The notes under the pieces are model-generated. The model did no database searches and was not told the origin of the DNA. It worked only from the letters and a program-made list of their open reading frames with translations. Positions 962-58,826 of a stretch of 64,000 nt of DNA are shown here, piece after piece. Position 1 is the stretch's first letter. The number at the start of each line of letters is the position of its first letter. The position numbers and the translations under genes are program-made. The stretch is from Gekko japonicus (Eukaryota): positions 531,622 to 595,621 of the forward strand of contig NW_015159728.1 of the NCBI RefSeq assembly GCF_001447785.1, in the 5' to 3' direction.

Positions 962-1505
962 CAGTGTGGTGTAGTAATTAGATGTTGGATTAAAAACTGG
1001 GAGACCCAAGTTTGAATCTCCATTAAGCCATGGAGCTTAATGGCGCGGAGAAGGAGCGACGCAGCAGGCCGGAGCCTGACTTGGACGGAGGCCGCTGCGA
1101 GCATGCGCGAAAGCACAAAGTGGTCCGGGCCTGGAGATAGCATTTGTGACAGCCGGAAAAAGTGGAACTGCGAAGACCTGTGCCAGAGAAGGGTCGCCGC
1201 CGGACTGTCCCCTCGCAAGAAGATCTGCTACAACAGAATAAAGGATGCCTGGTAGGCTTCTCACCGTCCCTACACATATGTGGCCCTAGATTAGGATCGT
1301 ATGAATTAGAATTGTAGAGCCCCTAGGGGGTGAGCGGGATAGAAGCCGAAGGATAAATAAATAAATAAATAAAATGGAAGCTTGCTGGGTAACCTTGAGC
1401 CAGTCACACTCAGCCTAACCACCAGGGTTGTTGTGAGAATAAAATGGAGAGGGTGAGAATTACATAAGCTACTTTGGGAGAAAACGAAGCATAAATAAAT
1501 AAATA
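962..1505 (+). mobile_element. Old tRNA-derived SINE interrupted by the 1039-1373 insertion
   Basis: A-box-like TGGTGTAGTAATTAG, B-box-like AGTTTGAATC; continues after 1374 with CTGGGTAACCTTGAGCCAG; (AAAT)n tail; similar copy at about 7527-7750. Confidence 0.65.
1039..1373 (+). mobile_element. 5'-truncated CpG-rich retroposon related to the 30279-30922 element
   Basis: Shares GAGCGGGATAGAAGCCGAA plus (TAAA)n tail with 30891-30922; near-TSD ATGGAGCTT / ATGGAAGCTT. Confidence 0.7.
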
Positions 1506-6430: not shown

Positions 6431-7222
6431 TCACATTTCCACTCTTTTCTGGCTTTCCAACCATTCCCTCCTCACATCAGCAATCTCCTGGCCATACCAA
6501 TCATGTAGCTTTGAGAAGCAGGCTGTCTCTGGAGACACAGGGCTTTCCTGTACAGTGGAAGCAAGGCCAGCAGTCAGCACTCCACTTACGTTGCTGCCTG
6601 CCAGCCTTCGGCGAGGAGGTAGAGGTGGGGGTTTTATATATCCCCCATCGTGGTCAAAAGAAACTCCTCCAACAAGGGAATAACTATCACCCCATGTAGC
6701 ATAACCATTCTCCATGATGACAGGGTGCTCCGGGACAGGTACCATTGTGGGGTTGGAGAGATGTCTCTTCCGGCCAGAAGATGACTTCTTTGGAAATTTA
6801 TGGCTGACAACCAAGTTCTTCCGGGCCTCCTCCAGTTGTTTCTCTAGCTCCTTCACCACTAGCCTCATGTAATCAAAGCTGGCCCGTGAAAGTGCCTTCA
6901 CCCAAGCTTCCATAGCCGTTTGGCAGTCAGCAACCAGCACGTAGGCCTTGGCACCAGCCCCATCAAAGCGGATGGCGAAGGCAAACTCCTCCGCAGCCTC
7001 ACATAGCTCAACAGTACAGCCCTCCAACACGATGAGCCCCAGGGGGTCACGGCTCTCCCGCTCTTCAAAATAGAACAGCAAGTTGCCCTTGAGGACAAAC
7101 CAGCGGCGCTGGTAGGACGTGGTGTGATGGTGGCGCTCCACACGCTTACACAGGAAGCCAGTGTGATCTGCTGGAGAGTCGCACGTGGCATAATGGGCCA
7201 CACTGCGCTCATTCAGCTTCAT
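6431..7222 (-). CDS. PHETA2: PH domain-containing endocytic trafficking adaptor 2 (sesquipedalian-2 / IPIP27B / FAM109B), 263 aa, single coding exon
   Basis: MKLNERSVAHYATCDSPADHTGFL N-terminus, PH domain (YQRRWFVLKGNLLFYFE), coiled coil, C-terminal F&H motif FSKLHDWYGQEI; polypyrimidine+CAG acceptor just upstream (exon starts 7237); head-to-head with NAGA as in mammals. Confidence 0.95.
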   Translation of the reverse strand: MKLNERSVAHYATCDSPADHTGFLCKRVERHHHTTSYQRRWFVLKGNLLFYFEERESRDPLGLIVLEGCTVELCEAAEEFAFAIRFDGAGAKAYVLVADCQTAMEAWVKALSRASFDYMRLVVKELEKQLEEARKNLVVSHKFPKKSSSGRKRHLSNPTMVPVPEHPVIMENGYATWGDSYSLVGGVSFDHDGGYIKPPPLPPRRRLAGSNVSGVLTAGLASTVQESPVSPETACFSKLHDWYGQEIADVRREWLESQKRVEM

Positions 7223-10189
7223 AGTAATGATGTCCCCCTGCAGAGAGAGAGAGAAAATGTACTGAACTTCCTGTTTGGCATAGGCTGCTTAATTGAAAGA
7301 AACAGAAGGCCACCCCTGAATCTTTTAAAAGATAAGCCCTTCTGCAGGATCAGATCCGCCACTACAGTGATGCTGGGCTAAACCCTTACACCACTAAGAT
7401 CCAGCCTACTCTAAGGAATATTTATTAAACTATCCAGAGCTAGGCCAGCAGTTAGGTGCTACAGGAGCAAGAGGAGGGACGCCCATACTTAGCAACATCA
7501 GCCTGCAGCAACCAATAAATTAGCGAGGCGTAGTCATTAGACTGTTAGACTAGGATCTGGGAGAGCCAGGTTCCAAGCCTCACTCTGCCATGGAAACTTC
7601 CTGGGTGACCTTGGGCCAGACAAACGCTCTCGCCCTAAACTACCTCTCAGGGTTTTTGTGAGGACAAAATGAAAGGAGACAAGCCCAGTGGAAACTGCTT
7701 TGGGTCCCCACTGGTGAGAAAGGTGGGGTATAAATAAAGTAAGTAAATACAATCACCTGCCCCTATTCATGGAGAAATGGGACTTTGACCTGGCCTCTGC
7801 AGTCATATAAACCCATGTTTGTACCAATATAGAAAATGGAGGGTTAGATGGTAGTTCTCGGGACATTTCTCAGACCGAAAGACTTGCTGGGCTTCATCTC
7901 TCTCCTTGCTACCAATGCCAGTTGGTGCAAAGATGTTGAAGACAGGAATCCCAATCTGAAACAGAAAATGGTTCAACTGGCGTTTCTGCAGGAAACCGAA
8001 CAGAACCCAAGAACTATGAAGTATTGTAACGCTCCATGGTTTCTTGCCTTTAAGAGATCATAATATTCACAAAGGCAACATTCCACATATAAATACATTC
8101 AGCCTTTCTGGTTAGAGTTTCTGCTCCTGGTTATGTTGATCATTCTCCTCCCATCCATGCAGACAGAACTGTTCCAGAGTCCTAGTACATCAATAATAGA
8201 CACACCCATCACCCTCTAGGGATTGCAAGAGACATTAGTCCAAATAAAGCGCCAGAGGGTGCAACTCATTCAGAATGATTTTGCCACCGAAATGACTGTC
8301 AGTAATCAAAGTCCCAAGAAGCTGATGGAGGCTATCAGCTGTAGTGCACAACCACCCACAAAGCAGTGTGCCACAGGGAATGTGTCAACCTGTGGCTACA
8401 AGCACAAGAGCAGGGCTAGCTTTTGTTTTGTTTTTAAATGACAAGCTGAGATCACGCACAAACCCTTTGCCAGGCCCATTCCCTCTCCTCTTTCATTCGA
8501 ACCCAACCATCCCCTCTCCTGCCTCCACTGTGTACCTGTCCTCCTCCAGCCCTTGTGTAACTAATAGAGTTGAGGAGGCTTCCAGGCACAGATGGTGCCA
8601 GTCCTTTCTTCTTGCACCTGGGTACTCTGCAATAGCAGTCAAAGTTGCCTACTGAGCTCCATTCCCCCCACTGAATATCACAGGTTGAGAAGTGGAGAAA
8701 ACAACTACTGAATTTCAATATAAAACTTCCGCGGGGGGGACGGGGGGACGACGACGACCGTTCCTTGTCCATCTTATTCAGCCACCGTAACCACTAGTTT
8801 TCTTCTGATTCTGCCCTTGGGATGCATACTTTACCCCAGATGCAGAAGATAGTTTTGTTACATTTGGAACCAGTGATCTCCGTGTTAAGCACACACTGCC
8901 CTGTGGCCTACTAGAGCCAAAATACTTCAAGTTCGATTTAGAACAAGAAAGGCGTTTTCAAAGCCCCAGACCGTCTGGGTATGTCTGAGTAAAACGTTTC
9001 TCCCGGTTGACAGACTTGGCAGAAAATTGTTTCCCTTTCAAGAAACAAACCTGCCCTAAAATGTGGGGTAGATAATCCACCTTACCTCGTTTTAATTCAG
9101 GAATTCAAATATCTGGGTCCTCTGTTGCATCTGGCCGTTATCCCTACCCACCCTCCCTTTTTTAGAGTACTTTCCTCTTGGCTACCCTCTTCTTTTGTTA
9201 AACTCCGGCTACTACTCGTGCATATTTCGTGGAGCAAAACCCGGAAAGTATAATCCTCAGTGCAGTAGGAACTACGTGGACCGTCTGGGATAGCCCTCTG
9301 CAAACCAGGTTTTCCAACAACCTCAAATCAATCACAGAGACGATGTTTCACGCTGTTTATTCCCCTGTTCCTTTCTCTCCTTCCAGGTCCTGGAAGCCAC
9401 ATATAGAAGAATTCTGACGTGTACGCGACGATTGAAGCTTCTTTGCTTTGGCCATGGATGTCCTTGCTGATTAAGTTTTTTTTCTTGGTCGTTTTATTGC
9501 CCCCATAAATGATGTCCTTTATGTAATTATATTTAGCAGGCCAAGTATGTTCCTTCCAAAATGTGGAGGCAGTTAAGCGCACAGAAAAGCCCCCCAATTT
9601 GCCCCCTAAGATTTCATTGCTAATATTATCTTGTAACAGTAGTTTTAAATTTATGCCGGTCGCCAACAGCTTAGAGTTATAAAATCCTCATTTAGAATGT
9701 TCGGAGGACCTGGTGGCGGAATGCTCCAGGCTGAATACATTCAGAAACCAGATGCCTCGGTGATTTTAAAATATGCGTCCTGTGCCAAGAGCAAATCTCC
9801 ATCTCTATGGCAACTCCTGTACTTATCCTAGGAGCTCTCTTGATAGCCCTTACCAAAGAAGAAATTGCTTTAATAAAGTAGGATCGCCTAAGACTACAGA
9901 TGCTGTTAACAGGATAGCGGGTGAAAGTTGCGCGGAGAAAAGTAAACAAACGGTACCGTAGCGCCTGCTCTGCACCTCGTTGCCCTCCCTGAATAGCCAC
10001 GCGAGGGCACTCCGTTACGAAAGCCACAAAGTGGCAATGACTAAATCGGGAAATAAACACCCGCGGTCTCACCAAGTGCCGGGAGAAACCCTGAGACTAG
10101 TCCCATGACCCACACTGGCATGGGACTATGGCTTTGCTGAGTCCATATGGAGTGGATGTATTGAGAGAGAGAGAGCGCCTAATACGAAA

Positions 10190-10445: not shown

Positions 10446-10722
10446 AAAGAAGAAGAAGATGAGATTGGATTTATACCCCGCCCTTCACTACCCAAAGGTG
10501 GCTCAGAGCGGCTTACAAACTGCTTTCCCTTCGGCTCCCCACAACAGACACCCTGTGAGGTAGGTGGGGCTGAGAGAGCTCTTGACAGAAACTGCTCTTT
10601 TTCAAGAACAGCTCTTATGGCTTGCCCAAGGCCATCCAGCCAGGTGCAAGTGGAGGAGTGGGGAATCAACCCCAGTTCTCCCAGATTAGAGTCCACGCAC
10701 TTAACCACTACACCAAACTGGC
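10446..10722 (-). mobile_element. Squam3-like tRNA SINE
   Basis: Head GCCAGTTTGGTGTAGTGGTTAAG, B-box GGTTGATTCC, tail GGGCGGGGTATAAATCCAATC(TTC)n; four copies in window. Confidence 0.85.
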
Positions 10723-13324: not shown

Positions 13325-13676
13325 GAAGAAGAGAAGAAGAGATTGGATTTACACCCCACCCTTCACTCAGAGTCTCAGAGCAGCTTACAAACTCCTTTCC
13401 CTTCCCCTCCCCTCCCCACAACAGAGACCCTGTGAGGTAGGTGGGGCTGAGAGAGCTTTCAAGGACAGCTCTGACAGAACTATGGCTTGCCTAAGGTCAT
13501 CTAGCAGCTGCAAGTGGAGGACTGGGGAATCAAACCCGATGCTCCCAGATTAGAGGACAGCTCTGACAGAACTATCCCTTGCCTAAGGTCATCTAGCAGC
13601 TGCAAGTGGAGGACTGGGGAATCAAACCTGATGCTCCCAGATTAGAGTCCGCACACTGAACCACTACACCAAACTG
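13325..13676 (-). mobile_element. Squam3-like SINE with a 92-bp internal tandem duplication
   Basis: Same family as 10446-10722; unit 13462-13553 repeated at 13554-13645. Confidence 0.85.
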
Positions 13677-15155
13677 CCTCTCTCACAAACAAGAACAGAA
13701 GAGAGGAGACCCCGCCCTGGGGGCCACTTGTCTCAGCTCGCTCCAGGGCTGTTTTAATGCCCCAGTCCTATGGCAGAGTGGCTGTCCACACCATTAAGTG
13801 CACCGTACCTTCCCTCCATGCCTTTCCTCACATTTTAATCCCTCCTTCCCTGCCTCCCTCCCAGGAGCTTGAGGCCGTGATAAGCCCCTGCCCCATTTCC
13901 TCATGACAACAGTCCTTTGAGAGAGGTTAGAGCTTGGCCCAAGGTCACCCTTCCCCCTTCCTTTTCCCTCCGTAAAGAGACCACCGAGTCCTACTCTTTG
14001 ATTGGCTCTGTGGGTAGGGTTGCCAGCTCTGGATTGGGAAAATACCTGGGGTTTGGGGAGGGCAGGGGAGGGACTCCGATGGGTTATAATGCCACAGAGT
14101 CCACGTTCCAAAGCAGCCATTTTCTCTGCCTGAACTGGTATCTACTGCCTGGAGATCAGTTATAATCCCAGGAGAGCTCCAGATACCACCTGGAGATTAT
14201 AACACCTGAGTGATGGAGTGCAGTTGGGAACAGAGGAGAAGCGCTTGTTCCCTCAACCCTTTCCCAGGTGAATGAAGAGCTGATATCAGGGAGTCCATGT
14301 GCATTCAGAAGGAAAAGAGCTGTGGTTGACTGCTTATGCATATGCACAAATGGCAATTTTAAAAAAAATGGCACCCGCGGGTATGCTCCACAGTTATGGT
14401 GCGGGAAGTGTGAACACTCAACCGGGAGCATCTGCATGCTGAGGCAGATGACGGGTACAATGTCTCAATGACATTCTCTGGAATAACCAAGACATCTGAT
14501 TGGAGCCCCGGTCTTGCCAGAGCAACCCTGCGAGGCAGGAGATGGGTGATCCAAGAAGAATTAGGCTCTTCCAGGTCCATTGAAATCATTGGGTTTAGGA
14601 AGGATGTAATTCTACTTGGGATCATACCGCAAGAGTATTCAATGGCTGAGTGCAGATTAGAAACCATGTCTTTCTAGTCCGGTACTCTAATCGCTACACT
14701 ACCTGGGCTTCCTTCTAGACAAGAAGGTGGATCTGGCCATCCCCCCAAATACCCTTCCTCCAACTTATATGGCTTTTCCTCCCACTTCAGTAGATCTTCC
14801 TCCTACAGAAGAGCCACTTAAGTTGGAAGAAGATTCCTTAGATTGGAGGAAGCCTTTAAACTTGAGCCAAAAGGAAAGGTGAGGTATAATATTTTTGAAT
14901 ACTGCATGCAGGGTATCAGTATTTATTAATAAATGAATTGACGAAGGATTCATGAATCCCAGGAGAAAAGGAAGTAATGTATGCTGCTAGAAGAGGGATG
15001 ATATGGAATTGTAAAGGAATAGTAGCCTGAGGAAGCCTCCGTGGACTATCCACTAAGGATAGCAACCAGGTGTTAAGGGTTAAAAAACCATTTAAAGTCA
15101 TAAAAATAACTCAGAAAACACTAGAATGCAATGGATAGACTCCGTTTGGACAATC

Positions 15156-15746: not shown

Positions 15747-16803
15747 GCTTCTAGCTGGGTGCTGTTAGGTAATTTGTAACAGGTGCTCATTATCCAGTGA
15801 CACTGTAGGCCTAATACAATCCAGATACAATTTAGGCATAATAACTTTACTGAAACATGCAAAGACTTAGGTCTTAAAGACCCAGCTACGTGACAGCCAT
15901 AACAACTGAAGGGACAAATCATGGCAAGCCAGACCGGCAATGGCCAGAAATGAGGGAATGCTAGATTGCCGGGCCACCATCATTCAAATTCTGAGAGTCA
16001 TTGGGCAGGGTCTGATGATGTCCGAGGTGGCTGGGTGAGGAGGACCTCGTGATGCCCCACATGGAATAACTATATCTGTAGCAGTATGGCTGCACACCAC
16101 TAGCATTTGAGGGTAGTCACAACCAAAGATGGCTTTGAAGAGGTGGATCGTATAGCAGATGAAAGACTTTAAACACTGGAAACTGAGTCTGTTTAGTGTG
16201 AAAAAATCACTATCAGACTATTGCCTCCCATCTCCAGTTGATGAGTTGCCACAAACAGGCATGCACAGAAATCTTCAGACAGCCACATCTCTCTAACGTG
16301 GCCTACCATCAACCGTCAAGGGAAAAGGGATTCGCTGATAATCATATTAGGAGTCCCATGTGCTGATCCGTGTGCCTATAATCTTCTCTCAAGAGACGTT
16401 GCAGGACAGGAGGCATTGATGTGTGTGTTTGAGTGGTGGTGGTGGGTTAAGATCAGTGTTGCCAGTCCCTGAGTGGGGGCTGGGGATCCCCCACCACAGC
16501 TCCTGTTTCCCACAATTGTGGGAGGAAAATGAAAAAAACAAAATGGCTGTCAGGCCTATGGCATGAAATCACTTCTGGGGGGAGCCCAGAAATGATATCA
16601 CATCTCTCTAGTAATTGCTGAAAACCCTATAGTAACACCACAGAAATTTCCAGTGATTCCAAGAGATGTGTGAAATCACTCTCATGTTTCCCTCCAGAAA
16701 TTTTCCCTGAAAACTCTATGGTTTTACAACAGAGTTTCTGGGGATTCCTAGAGAGGCATGACATGACTTCTGGATTTCCCCCCAAAGTGGTATCACACTA
16801 TTG

Positions 16804-17143
16804 TAGGGTTCCCAAATGTGCCCGGGGGGCGGGGAACCCCCCACTTCGGAGCCCCCGAGTTCCGCCCCGGAGGAATCCGGGCCCGGGGGAAACCCCGCCC
16901 CTGAAGCTGCGTCAGCGGAGGTGACGCAGTCACATCGCTGACGTTGGAGGCGTGGCTGAGCTCGTCGGGGTGGAAAACCATATGTTCCCCCCCCCCGACG
17001 AGCTCGGCCCCGCCCCCAACGTCAGCGACGTCTGACGTCACTTCTTGTGACGTCGCAGCGGCGCGCGCGCAGGGACGAACGGCGAACTCCCGGCCGGAAC
17101 GGAGCCTCCCCCACTGGTGAGTTAAAAGGATTTGGCAACCCTA
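16804..17143. mobile_element. Young hAT-type MITE related to 231-473
   Basis: TAGGGTTCCCAAAT / ATTTGGCAACCCTA TIRs; perfect 8-bp TSD CACTATTG (16796-16803, 17144-17151); same internal hairpin as 231-473. Confidence 0.85.
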
Positions 17144-26342: not shown

Positions 26343-26621
26343 AGAAGAAGAAGAAGAGATTGGATTTATACCCCGCCCTTCACTACCCAAAGGTGTCTCA
26401 GAGTGGCTTACAAACTCCTTTCCCTTCCCCTCCCCACAACAGACACCCTGGGAGGGAGGCGGGACTGAGAGAACTCTGACAGAAACTGCTCTTTTTCCAA
26501 GAACAGCTGTGCCGGAACTATGGCTTGCCCAAGGTCATCCAGCAGCTGCAAGTGGAGGAGTGGGGAATCAAACCCGGTTCTCCCAGATTAGAGTCCGCGC
26601 ACTTAACCACTACACCAAACT
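26343..26621 (-). mobile_element. Squam3-like SINE
   Basis: High similarity to 10446-10722. Confidence 0.85.
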
Positions 26622-26885
26622 TAAGAATAGTGCCAAAAATGGCAGTGACAAGTGCTGCCACTCTGATAGGAATTGGGAGCCCTTGAGTCCTTGGTTTCCT
26701 AATACAAACAGTTTGAAAAGAACTGAACAAAAGAATGGACAATGCAGTGGACTATGGAAGTGAATGGAAATAATGTCTAGCAGCTTACTTGAGGTATAGA
26801 CAAGGCATGTTGGGAGATGGGTCTCTTATTGAAAGGTACAGCTTTGTCACCTCTGTCTCCAGCAGCGATCCATCACCTTGTGGCC

Positions 26886-30278: not shown

Positions 30279-30922
30279 GGGTGGCGCAGGTGGTTAAACC
30301 GCCTGCTGGTAACATCTGCGAACAGCTGCTACAGCTGTTCAAATCCACTGCGGCCAGAGCTCCCGCCCACCCAGCGGTTCGAAAGCAATAATATCAAGAC
30401 GCAAGTAGATAAATTGGGTACCTGCCTTAGATGGCAGGGAGCACCCTTCCCCGTCAGGGGGGCTGGTGAAGCATTGGCGGCGAGGCGAAGAACAATGACG
30501 GCATCGGCGGCAGGCGGCAAAAATGACAACCGGGCGCAACATCGGCAGCGATCCAGACGTCGGCGGAGGGTGGAGCCAGGAGACGCAGGGAGAGCGTGAG
30601 GCGCAGGCGTGGGCGGAGCCATGACAGACAGAGCCGAAGCCGCGCCAATGTGAACCAAGCACCGAATGGATATACCAACCACAGCCGACACCGAGGGTCG
30701 CAGGAGGAGAAGGAGGAAGAGCCGGAGAGAGCTGTGTCAGCAACGGGCCGAGGGGCCGAATCATGAGTAAGAAGAACAATAACTCCATCTACAGGGTGCC
30801 GGTAGGGCAGTCCCCACCCCGATTAAGTTGTGGCCATAGTTAGGGATAATAGAGTAACTGTAAGCCGCTCAGAGACCCCTTGGGGGGTTCGAGCGGGATA
30901 GAAGCCGAAATAAATAAATAAA
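30279..30922 (+). mobile_element. Chimeric SINE-like element: Sauria-type tRNA head, CpG-rich body, L2-type tail
   Basis: A-box TGGCGCAGGTGG, B-box GTTCAAATCC, Sauria-like GCGGTTCGAAAGCA..CAAGTAGATAAATTGGGTACC, tail TGTAAGCCGCTCAGAG..GAGCGGGATAGAAGCCGAA(ATAA)n. Confidence 0.75.
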
Positions 30923-31005
30923 AAGCATTGCCAAGTGTGGCTTAGTTATTCTACTTGCCTTTGCAAATTCCTCTGTATCTCAGACGTCACAATTTATTTT
31001 GGCAG

Positions 31006-31183
31006 GTACACTCACTGGGGCTGAAGCTTGGCATTTATGGAGACCTCGGTACCCACACTTGTGGCGGGTACCCTGGCACTACATTGGATCAGATCGAACA
31101 GGATGCTTTAACATTTGCAGAATGGGGGGTCGACATGCTGAAGCTAGATGGCTGCTATTCATCAGCAGAATACCAGGCCAAGG
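31006..31183 (+). CDS. NAGA: NAGA coding exon 3 (catalytic nucleophile, KLDGC)
   Basis: [36 protein letters not shown]; 178 nt; AG/GT. Confidence 0.96.
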
Positions 31184-45783: not shown

Positions 45784-46769
45784 CTACAAAGTAAGGGAAG
45801 AACCAGGCAGAACTTGTTCACAGATACAAAAACAATAGAGATGATTTGTAGAGCATCTTTTTCTGGATAAGACAAGAGAGGGCAGATTCCTCCATTCCCT
45901 GCAGGAAGGGAACGCAGCATGACTACGTACCCAGCACCATCAGCTGTTTGATTTTTAACTGCAGTGGTTTTGAGGGGCCAAGGATGGGGGACCGGACAAT
46001 GATCACAAGGACAAAATGACATCAAGAAGCAGGCCAACAAAGATGGAGGAATCCACACACAAGCACACACAGTTCCAATGCAACCCTTCTCCAAGGTTAG
46101 GTAGCTACAAGGACTTCAGCCAAAGTGTGCATTCTTGTTGGAAAATATTATGATTTTTGATATGCTTTTGAGACTATGACCAGTCTTTCACCAGGTTTCC
46201 CTCCACAATCCCTCAGAATTAGTTACACTTTTACATATGAAGCTGACTTATATCAAGTCAGACCACTGGTCCATTTAGCTTTGTACTGTCTATTCAGACC
46301 ACCAGTGGCTCTTAAGGGTCTCAGGTAGAGTTATTCTCAACACCTGATACTTTGAAATATTTTAAACTGAAGATGCCAAGGGCCTTCCGCATGGGAAGTA
46401 TCTGCTCCAGTACTCAACTACAGCCCCTGTCCTTATTGCTAAGATAACTGGCTGAAAACATTACTGAGGAAATCAGATGACTATATGTGGACAGCCCTCA
46501 GGTTCCATATACATGGAATAAATATCCCCCTCCCCTTTCCAGTCATATTCCATCTCTTATTGAAACAGTTAGCAGAAAAAAGCACAAGAATTCATTTTAA
46601 ATATAGATATCCTCCAAATAGTAGAAAATATGATAGAACAGAAGTGAATTACTTATTAACATGTTTACTATTTATGCCTCTTCAACTGAGAACTTCTTAT
46701 TCAAAACCTAGGAAATGCCATCTAGGCAAAATCTGACATTAATTTTAAACAAAGAAGCCCTCAAGAGAT

Positions 46770-47031
46770 GAAGAAGAGATTGGATTTATACCCCACCCCT
46801 CACCACCCGAAAGCGTCTCAGAACGGTTTACAATCTCCTTTCCCTTCCCTTACCCACAACAGACAGAGGGGGCTGAGAGAGCTCTTTTGAAAACTGCTTG
46901 TGAGAGAACAGCTCTGAAAGAATTTGTAACTGACCCAAGGTCACACCAGCAGCTGCACGTGGAGGAGTGGGGAAATCAAACCCAGTTCTCCCAGATTAGA
47001 GTCCACACTCCTAACCACTACACCAAATTGG
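46770..47031 (-). mobile_element. Squam3-like SINE
   Basis: Similarity to 10446-10722. Confidence 0.8.
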
Positions 47032-58704: not shown

Positions 58705-58826
58705 TTCTAGTCGTGCCAGCCACATGACCACGGAAACATCTTCGGACAGCACTGGCTCTTCGGCTTGGAAATGAAGATGAGCACCACAACCCTAGAGCTT
58801 TCGAGCAAGGGAAACCTTTACCTTTA
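58705..58826 (+). mobile_element. Sauria SINE 3' half
   Basis: GCCACATGACCACGGAAACATCTTCGGACAGCACTGGCTCTTCGGCTTGGAAATG..ACCTTTACCTTT. Confidence 0.8.

Follow-up and report, generated by a model that had tools for sequence, protein, structure and literature searches.

The locus examined here lies in a stretch of 64,000 nucleotides of the Gekko japonicus genome, referred to throughout as the window, and it raises the question of whether a head resembling Sauria SINEs, a CpG-rich body and a 3' end of the L2 type, which follow one another within some 640 nt, form a single mobile element and, if so, how that element was assembled and which enzyme moves it. An earlier note on this DNA had read the locus as a young SINE family that exchanged its partner LINE from RTE to L2 and gained an unusually long body. 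The features bearing on this reading are collected in Table 1.

Table 1. Features of the long SINE copy and of neighbouring or related sequences in the window
Feature	Position	Strand	Basis
Long SINE copy, near-full-length, lineage A	30280..30923	+	family alignment
tRNA-type head and Sauria-related segment	30280..30440	+	66-74% local identity to host Sauria copies
A box, putative internal Pol III promoter	30282..30293	+	conserved across lineages
B box, putative	30337..30346	+	B box present in 38 of the 53 complete clan copies
Second B-box-like motif, common to Sauria	30376..30386	+	
Conserved hairpin closing the Sauria-related part	30421..30438	+	both partners of one pair altered in 14 of 51 copies; mean pairing probability 0.59
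Variable GC/purine/CpG-rich body, no conserved ORF	30447..30793	+	56% mean pairwise identity; T 11.6%
Conserved clan-specific 3' block	30794..30858	+	absent from sampled host LINE
L2-type 3' hairpin, predicted recognition signal for a LINE reverse transcriptase	30859..30907	+	LINE and Squam3 matches, fold
(ATAA)n tail	30908..30923	+	
Alpha-galactosidase/NAGA-type gene exon	31006..31183	+	Pfam Melibiase_2, E 1.6e-23
Classical Sauria SINE 3' fragment, for reference, outside the element	58705..58826	+	
Sister lineage C copy of the same clan, 5'-truncated	1032..1373	+	

The window copy lacks the family's first 6 nt, and its start, given before as 30279, is corrected to 30280; a further 23 nt have been deleted from the head after 30357. 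It differs from the majority sequence of its lineage by 3.6% at non-CpG positions, and no target-site duplication (TSD) was found around it. The putative A and B boxes described earlier are present. The Sauria-like segment is likewise real but reaches to about 30440 rather than 30422, and the body of about 430 bp that had gone unrecognized, although purine- and CpG-rich as described, gives up its last 65 or so nucleotides (30794-30858) to a block conserved throughout the clan. The sequence at 58705-58826, cited for comparison as classical Sauria, is indeed the 3' part of a Sauria copy with ACCTTT repeats at its end. Downstream of the SINE, the galactosidase-type exon is joined at its ends to other sequence by one contig and by RNA reads. 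The SINE lies upstream of this exon in the sense orientation, its 3' end about 83 nt before the splice acceptor, and it presumably sits within an intron of the gene.

Elsewhere in the window, an open frame of 285 aa (6434-7288, minus strand), which runs antisense to the galactosidase-type exon, presumably resembles a PH-domain protein. Two GC-rich palindromic repeats (231-474 and 16801-17031), related to each other and bearing inverted motifs at their termini, are probably non-autonomous DNA transposons.

When the genome was searched with the element, all of the best 40 of 4,364 candidates had the 3' end in common, and among these same 40, 22 of the 39 copies other than the window's were full-length with the same 5' start. 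These copies split into two lineages, A and B, both with a majority sequence of 668 nt; a third, lineage C, measures 624 nt and has the same layout at 64-66% identity to A and B. A tail motif of lineages A-C has 111 exact matches in the genome (control, 0), and the 102 distinct loci retrieved with it were all SINE copies and none a LINE, with a best match to A at 27, to B at 36 and to C at 39. In 28 of the 102, the start lies no more than 9 nt from the shared 5' end; the others have lost 5' sequence to varying extents. The unit is thus dispersed and present in many copies, and it has a uniform 5' start, a simple-repeat 3' tail and 5'-truncated members, as is characteristic of a SINE. That unrelated fragments had merely become nested by chance at the window locus is refuted by the same junctions at dozens of independent loci, and can be considered extremely improbable; the family with fixed junctions proposed in the earlier note stands. 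Its youth does not. Recent amplification is confined to the terminal lineages, where median non-CpG divergence from the lineage majority amounts to 2.7% in A (n=16), 5.8% in B (n=20) and 2.5% in C (n=21), whereas the order of head, body and tail is common to dozens of lineages, whose bodies are 56% identical, and to a sister branch besides. The lineage of the window copy is therefore recent, at about 3% divergence, and the joining of head to tail is old.

The breadth of the clan became apparent from motif searches, which gave 1,260 exact genome matches for a head motif and 5,002 for a less stringent tail motif (controls, 0 for both). Of the 1,260 head-motif matches, 100 were listed, first by contig number, and 90 loci from among them were examined; none was a classical Sauria element, 76 reached an L2-type tail within 900 nt, 12 were interrupted or escaped the tail pattern, and two ran into gaps. 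Complete copies with both ends numbered 53 (395-962 nt, median 662 nt), and on average any two of them are 83% identical over the head, 56% over the body and 70% over the 3' part. Together with the window's, these 54 copies form 48, 40 and 35 clusters at 90, 85 and 80% body identity, and such a number of lineages (35-48) among the copies sampled departs from the picture of a few master copies. Approached from the other end, 26 of 30 tail-motif loci sampled align to clan copies, and none of the 30 has a LINE ORF2 frame upstream in sense. A sister branch, D, was reached through loose ends in the RNA data; a motif of it has 1,573 exact matches (control, 0), and 15 of 30 copies are complete (529-582 nt; e.g. 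G000:C8:531409), with the same layout and head type and a 3' end made of an L2-type hairpin and an (ATT)n tail. Another motif from the RNA loose ends, a tail variant, had 0 genomic hits. The similarities of head, body and tail covary among copies (Spearman 0.32-0.52), copies with similar bodies having similar heads and tails, a pattern that agrees with a single ancient joining of the parts and subsequent vertical divergence, and not with repeated capture of bodies. The clan is large, old and many-branched, and the lineage in the window is one twig of it. Its length, about 530-710 nt, reaches or exceeds the published maximum for SINEs, since the median full copy of 662 nt, which bears out the unusual length noted before, compares with a range of 75-662 nt (mean 253) over 175 families in the available part of the SINEBase account (PMC3531059).

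Two near-identical clan copies were seen 1.4 kb apart (G000:C34:468911 and 470348) with the same flanks and with repeated short 5' starts upstream, and are probably the result of local duplication. Head-only pieces or internally interrupted copies also adjoin members of the clan (L002:2726-2864, L022:1203-1327 and L115).

The relationship of the head to Sauria was assessed against copies in the host rather than a published consensus, and the query biased that sample towards one subfamily. Over its first 200 nt or so, the element shows 66-74% local identity to 30 host Sauria loci, and the match of the clan profile to Sauria extends no further than model position 193, so that the Sauria-related nature of the head, as claimed earlier, holds. 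In global alignments, heads of the main branch of the clan are 79% identical to one another, 67% to those of branch D and 57-58% to those of Sauria, and the sampled host Sauria heads are 89% identical among themselves. The Bov-B-related 3' part of Sauria found no match on 54 clan copies. The head folds into hairpins like the arms of a tRNA, several of them with compensatory changes, although the counts of such changes do not represent independent events, given that the copies are related. A perfect B box is lacking in 15 of the 53 full copies, and neither ARAGORN nor Rfam reported a tRNA in the element.

For the 3' end, the relevant comparison is with a host LINE that was retrieved from an ORF2 fragment and codes for a reverse transcriptase. 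This LINE is taken to be an L2 element, an assignment resting on ORF2 motifs and on the tail type recognized in the Squam3 study rather than on a tree. Of 30 copies, 24 terminate in a hairpin of the type seen in the SINE, followed by (AAAT)n, and the SINE tail is 76-80% identical to the LINE end over 45 nt, with a compensatory change in the stem. The hairpin at 30859-30907 has a fold z of -2.6. Placed on the host LINE, the clan profile matches only the last 55 nt or so, and the conserved 65-nt 3' block is absent from the sampled LINE copies. Similarity to the Squam3-like copies in the window is 85% over 27 nt, and in the available part of the Squam3 paper this tail type is assigned to L2 and very few TSDs are reported (PMC7983390). 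The L2-type tail announced by the earlier note is thus matched both by host LINE 3' ends and by the L2-type tails of Squam3. Because the tail resembles Squam3 (85% over 27 nt) somewhat more closely than it does the sampled LINE (76% over 45 nt), it may derive by way of Squam3, which may have been its immediate donor. A LINE with the exact tail of the clan, or with its conserved 65-nt 3' block, was absent from the 102 tail-motif loci of lineages A-C, from the 30 loci sampled with the relaxed motif and from 18 matches to the LINE C terminus in the retrieved DNA, and the sampled host LINE is no more than a candidate partner.

Squam3-like SINE copies occur in the window at 10448-10721, 13326-13677, 26343-26623 and 46763-47031 (minus strand). 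The one at 13462-13675 contains an internal tandem duplication of 92 nt that resembles the SINE-derived satellites described in the available part of PMC10702118. A repeat of about 274 nt with a (CTT)n tail, also in the window, appears to fit a Squam3 subfamily that the accessible text of PMC7983390 lists for Gekkonidae.

Further information on the mobilizing enzyme comes from insertion signatures, for which TSDs of at least 8 nt were counted and compared with a null from shuffles. Such duplications flank five of 115 copies of lineages A-C (null 3.3%) and none of 37 full-length copies, two of 53 in the wider clan, none of 15 in branch D and two of 23 copies of the host LINE, but 14 of 30 host Sauria copies (null 1.3%). 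The signature of the clan is therefore L2-like and not Bov-B-like; with TSDs rare as in the host LINE and unlike those of host Sauria, it follows the tail and not the head. Judging from the sequence data, mobilization is likely to have been carried out by an L2 enzyme and not by that of Bov-B, the probable source of the enzyme that copies Sauria.

The composition of the element is also distinctive. Positions 30423-30858 are 60.6% GC, 63.8% purine and 11.7% T and contain 33 CpG, with an observed/expected ratio of 0.86 as against 0.26 for the 64-kb window. The absence of TTTT from 30279-30922, noted before as compatible with a full Pol III transcript, was borne out, there being not even a TTT; in one copy, however, this means little by itself, since TTTT is likewise missing from 12 other intervals of this size (640 nt or longer) in the window. 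Across the clan, only one of 53 full copies contains TTTT, as against 6.4 +/- 2.1 expected from dinucleotide shuffling, where one replicate in 100 was as low. This depletion fits a Pol III transcript, but three of 15 branch D copies contain TTTT, and a low T content is not specific to Pol III, the 5' region of the host LINE being likewise low at 15% T. A coding body was ruled out; the longest ATG-initiated frames vary from 19 to 208 aa over the 53 copies with none conserved, and stops interrupt the frames of the lineage A and lineage B majority sequences. Structured RNAs, including HDV-like ribozymes, gave no near-threshold Rfam hit in the window region or at 20 loci. A long-range helix closing the body was also rejected, as it appeared in the alignment fold only, with a mean probability of 0.06 in single-sequence ensembles, and was absent from averaged helices. 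Between 16 and 45 RNA reads per run fall on the window locus over 1.7 kb, many of them from sister lineages, and reads of the family (99-665 per run) come from both strands with no pile-ups at starts or ends, a pattern that read-through transcription would also give. There was no RNA record among the matches listed for near-identical sequence.

Taken together, the clan is quite probably one of long, tRNA-headed SINEs served by Pol III and by the L2 machinery. A single old recombination or template switch would have joined a Sauria-related 5' part of about 190 nt, a GC-rich body and an L2-type 3' end, and dozens of source lineages would then have diverged vertically, with the body drifting under weak constraint. 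Pol III would transcribe the unit of about 670 nt from its internal A and B boxes, the ORF2 protein of a host L2 would recognize the terminal hairpin and the A-rich tail, and target-primed reverse transcription would insert full or 5'-truncated copies without long duplications.

This account has to be weighed against others that differ on the direction of the exchange, on the source of the body and on novelty. An ancestral SINE with this head may have given rise in parallel, or in the reverse order, both to Sauria with its Bov-B tail and to the clan with its L2 tail, without any swap from RTE to L2. Such a course has real weight while falling short of probable, as clan heads are more diverse in this genome, both within the main branch and between branches, than the sampled Sauria heads, and as they stand well apart from Sauria with no intermediate bearing Bov-B remnants seen; yet the bias of the Sauria sample towards one subfamily tempers the first of these points, near-identical sequence is listed under one organism only (in a search limited to very close copies), and Sauria, by the accessible text of PMC13295347, is reported across lizards and snakes with a partner LINE that may exceed 180 My. 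An unlikely alternative is a bipartite, internally deleted L2 derivative, in which the body would be an L2 5' UTR with an internal Pol II promoter and a Sauria-type head would have been added to it. The 5' region of the host LINE, about 1.5 kb long, is indeed rich in CpG and, on the same strand, rich in G and poor in T, and varies strongly between lineages (no consistent long ORF1 was seen in the copies inspected), and in two LINE copies it opens with a 10-nt motif, presumably YY1-like, that also occurs in the bodies of lineages A and B. Bodies derived from LINEs in bipartite elements are moreover known for RTE and Vingi, according to the available part of PMC5786205. On the other hand, the shared motif was present in none of 51 wider-clan bodies, the clan profile found no match on 30 host LINE 5' regions (of the one LINE family sampled), and local alignments of the body with the LINE 5' region scored 37-42, barely above the 35-39 of dinucleotide shuffles.

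Little credence is likewise given to a fuller version, by which the clan would have captured a CpG-rich LINE promoter region as its body of about 350 nt, with dozens of lineages amplifying at once under pressure from host silencing while the hairpins of head and tail were structurally held; were it true, it would provide the first L2-derived SINE body and a SINE population whose evolution resembles that of a swarm of LINE promoters. Finally, the family could have been catalogued already, for instance as Anolis SINE 2 or as a gecko entry in Repbase or Dfam, a prospect to be taken seriously though with some scepticism. De novo repeat finders should hardly overlook a family of thousands of copies, and Anolis SINE 2, here compared by description only, is given Anolis LINE 2 as its partner and both boxes, A and B, in its head in the accessible part of PMC3747384. 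Nevertheless, three named squamate families measure about 190-350 nt in the available text of PMC10702118, in contrast to the 530-710 nt of the clan, no description of a long, Sauria-headed and L2-tailed SINE was found in the literature (Repbase and Dfam lying outside that search), and head motifs of the clan are absent from the readable parts of the supplements of two papers. The long SINE clan joined once and moved by L2 remains the preferred reading. The clan offers material on how SINE bodies originate and persist. Each insertion adds a CpG-rich segment of 350 nt to the genome. Two SINE groups with homologous heads and opposite insertion signatures in one genome also constitute a natural experiment on the selection of the partner enzyme by the 3' end.

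Among known systems, the Sauria SINE, or Squam1, is the closest at the 5' end, for it shares with the clan a homologous region of about 190 nt, the A and B boxes, the second B-box-like motif and the hairpin that follows. Sauria is, however, about 350 nt long and continues into a Bov-B-related part and (ACCTTT)n, whereas clan members are 530-710 nt long and have at their 3' end an L2-type hairpin followed by (ATAA)n or (ATT)n; set against the Sauria length of about 350-360 nt in the available part of PMC10058329, the clan median of 662 nt lies well outside. Squam3, a Ther1-derived SINE with an L2 partner, is alike in its type of terminal hairpin, its (TAAA)n-type tail and its very low rate of TSDs, but as described in the accessible part of PMC7983390 it is 218-271 nt long and has a CORE body and another head, such that only the last 27-45 nt or so resemble the clan. 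Neither the CORE body nor the length of 218-271 nt is found in the clan, in which the terminal 27 nt alone match the Squam3-like copies of the window. Anolis SINE 2, with its partner Anolis LINE 2, is comparable, again by description in the portion of PMC3747384 available, as another lizard SINE that has both boxes and is paired with an L2. The tail-exchanged or bipartite SINEs ERE4B, WALLSI2, IdioSINE2 and SINE2-1_ACar, as treated in the available part of PMC5786205, similarly combine a tRNA head with the 3' part of another element. Their bodies are short and come from the 5' UTRs of RTE or Vingi, the only LINE groups credited with SINE bodies in that part of the account (Kojima 2018), whereas the clan body is about 350 nt long, untraced and only 56% identical among concurrent lineages. 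Since tail exchange among SINEs is already established, the clan represents a striking variant of it and not a new mechanism.
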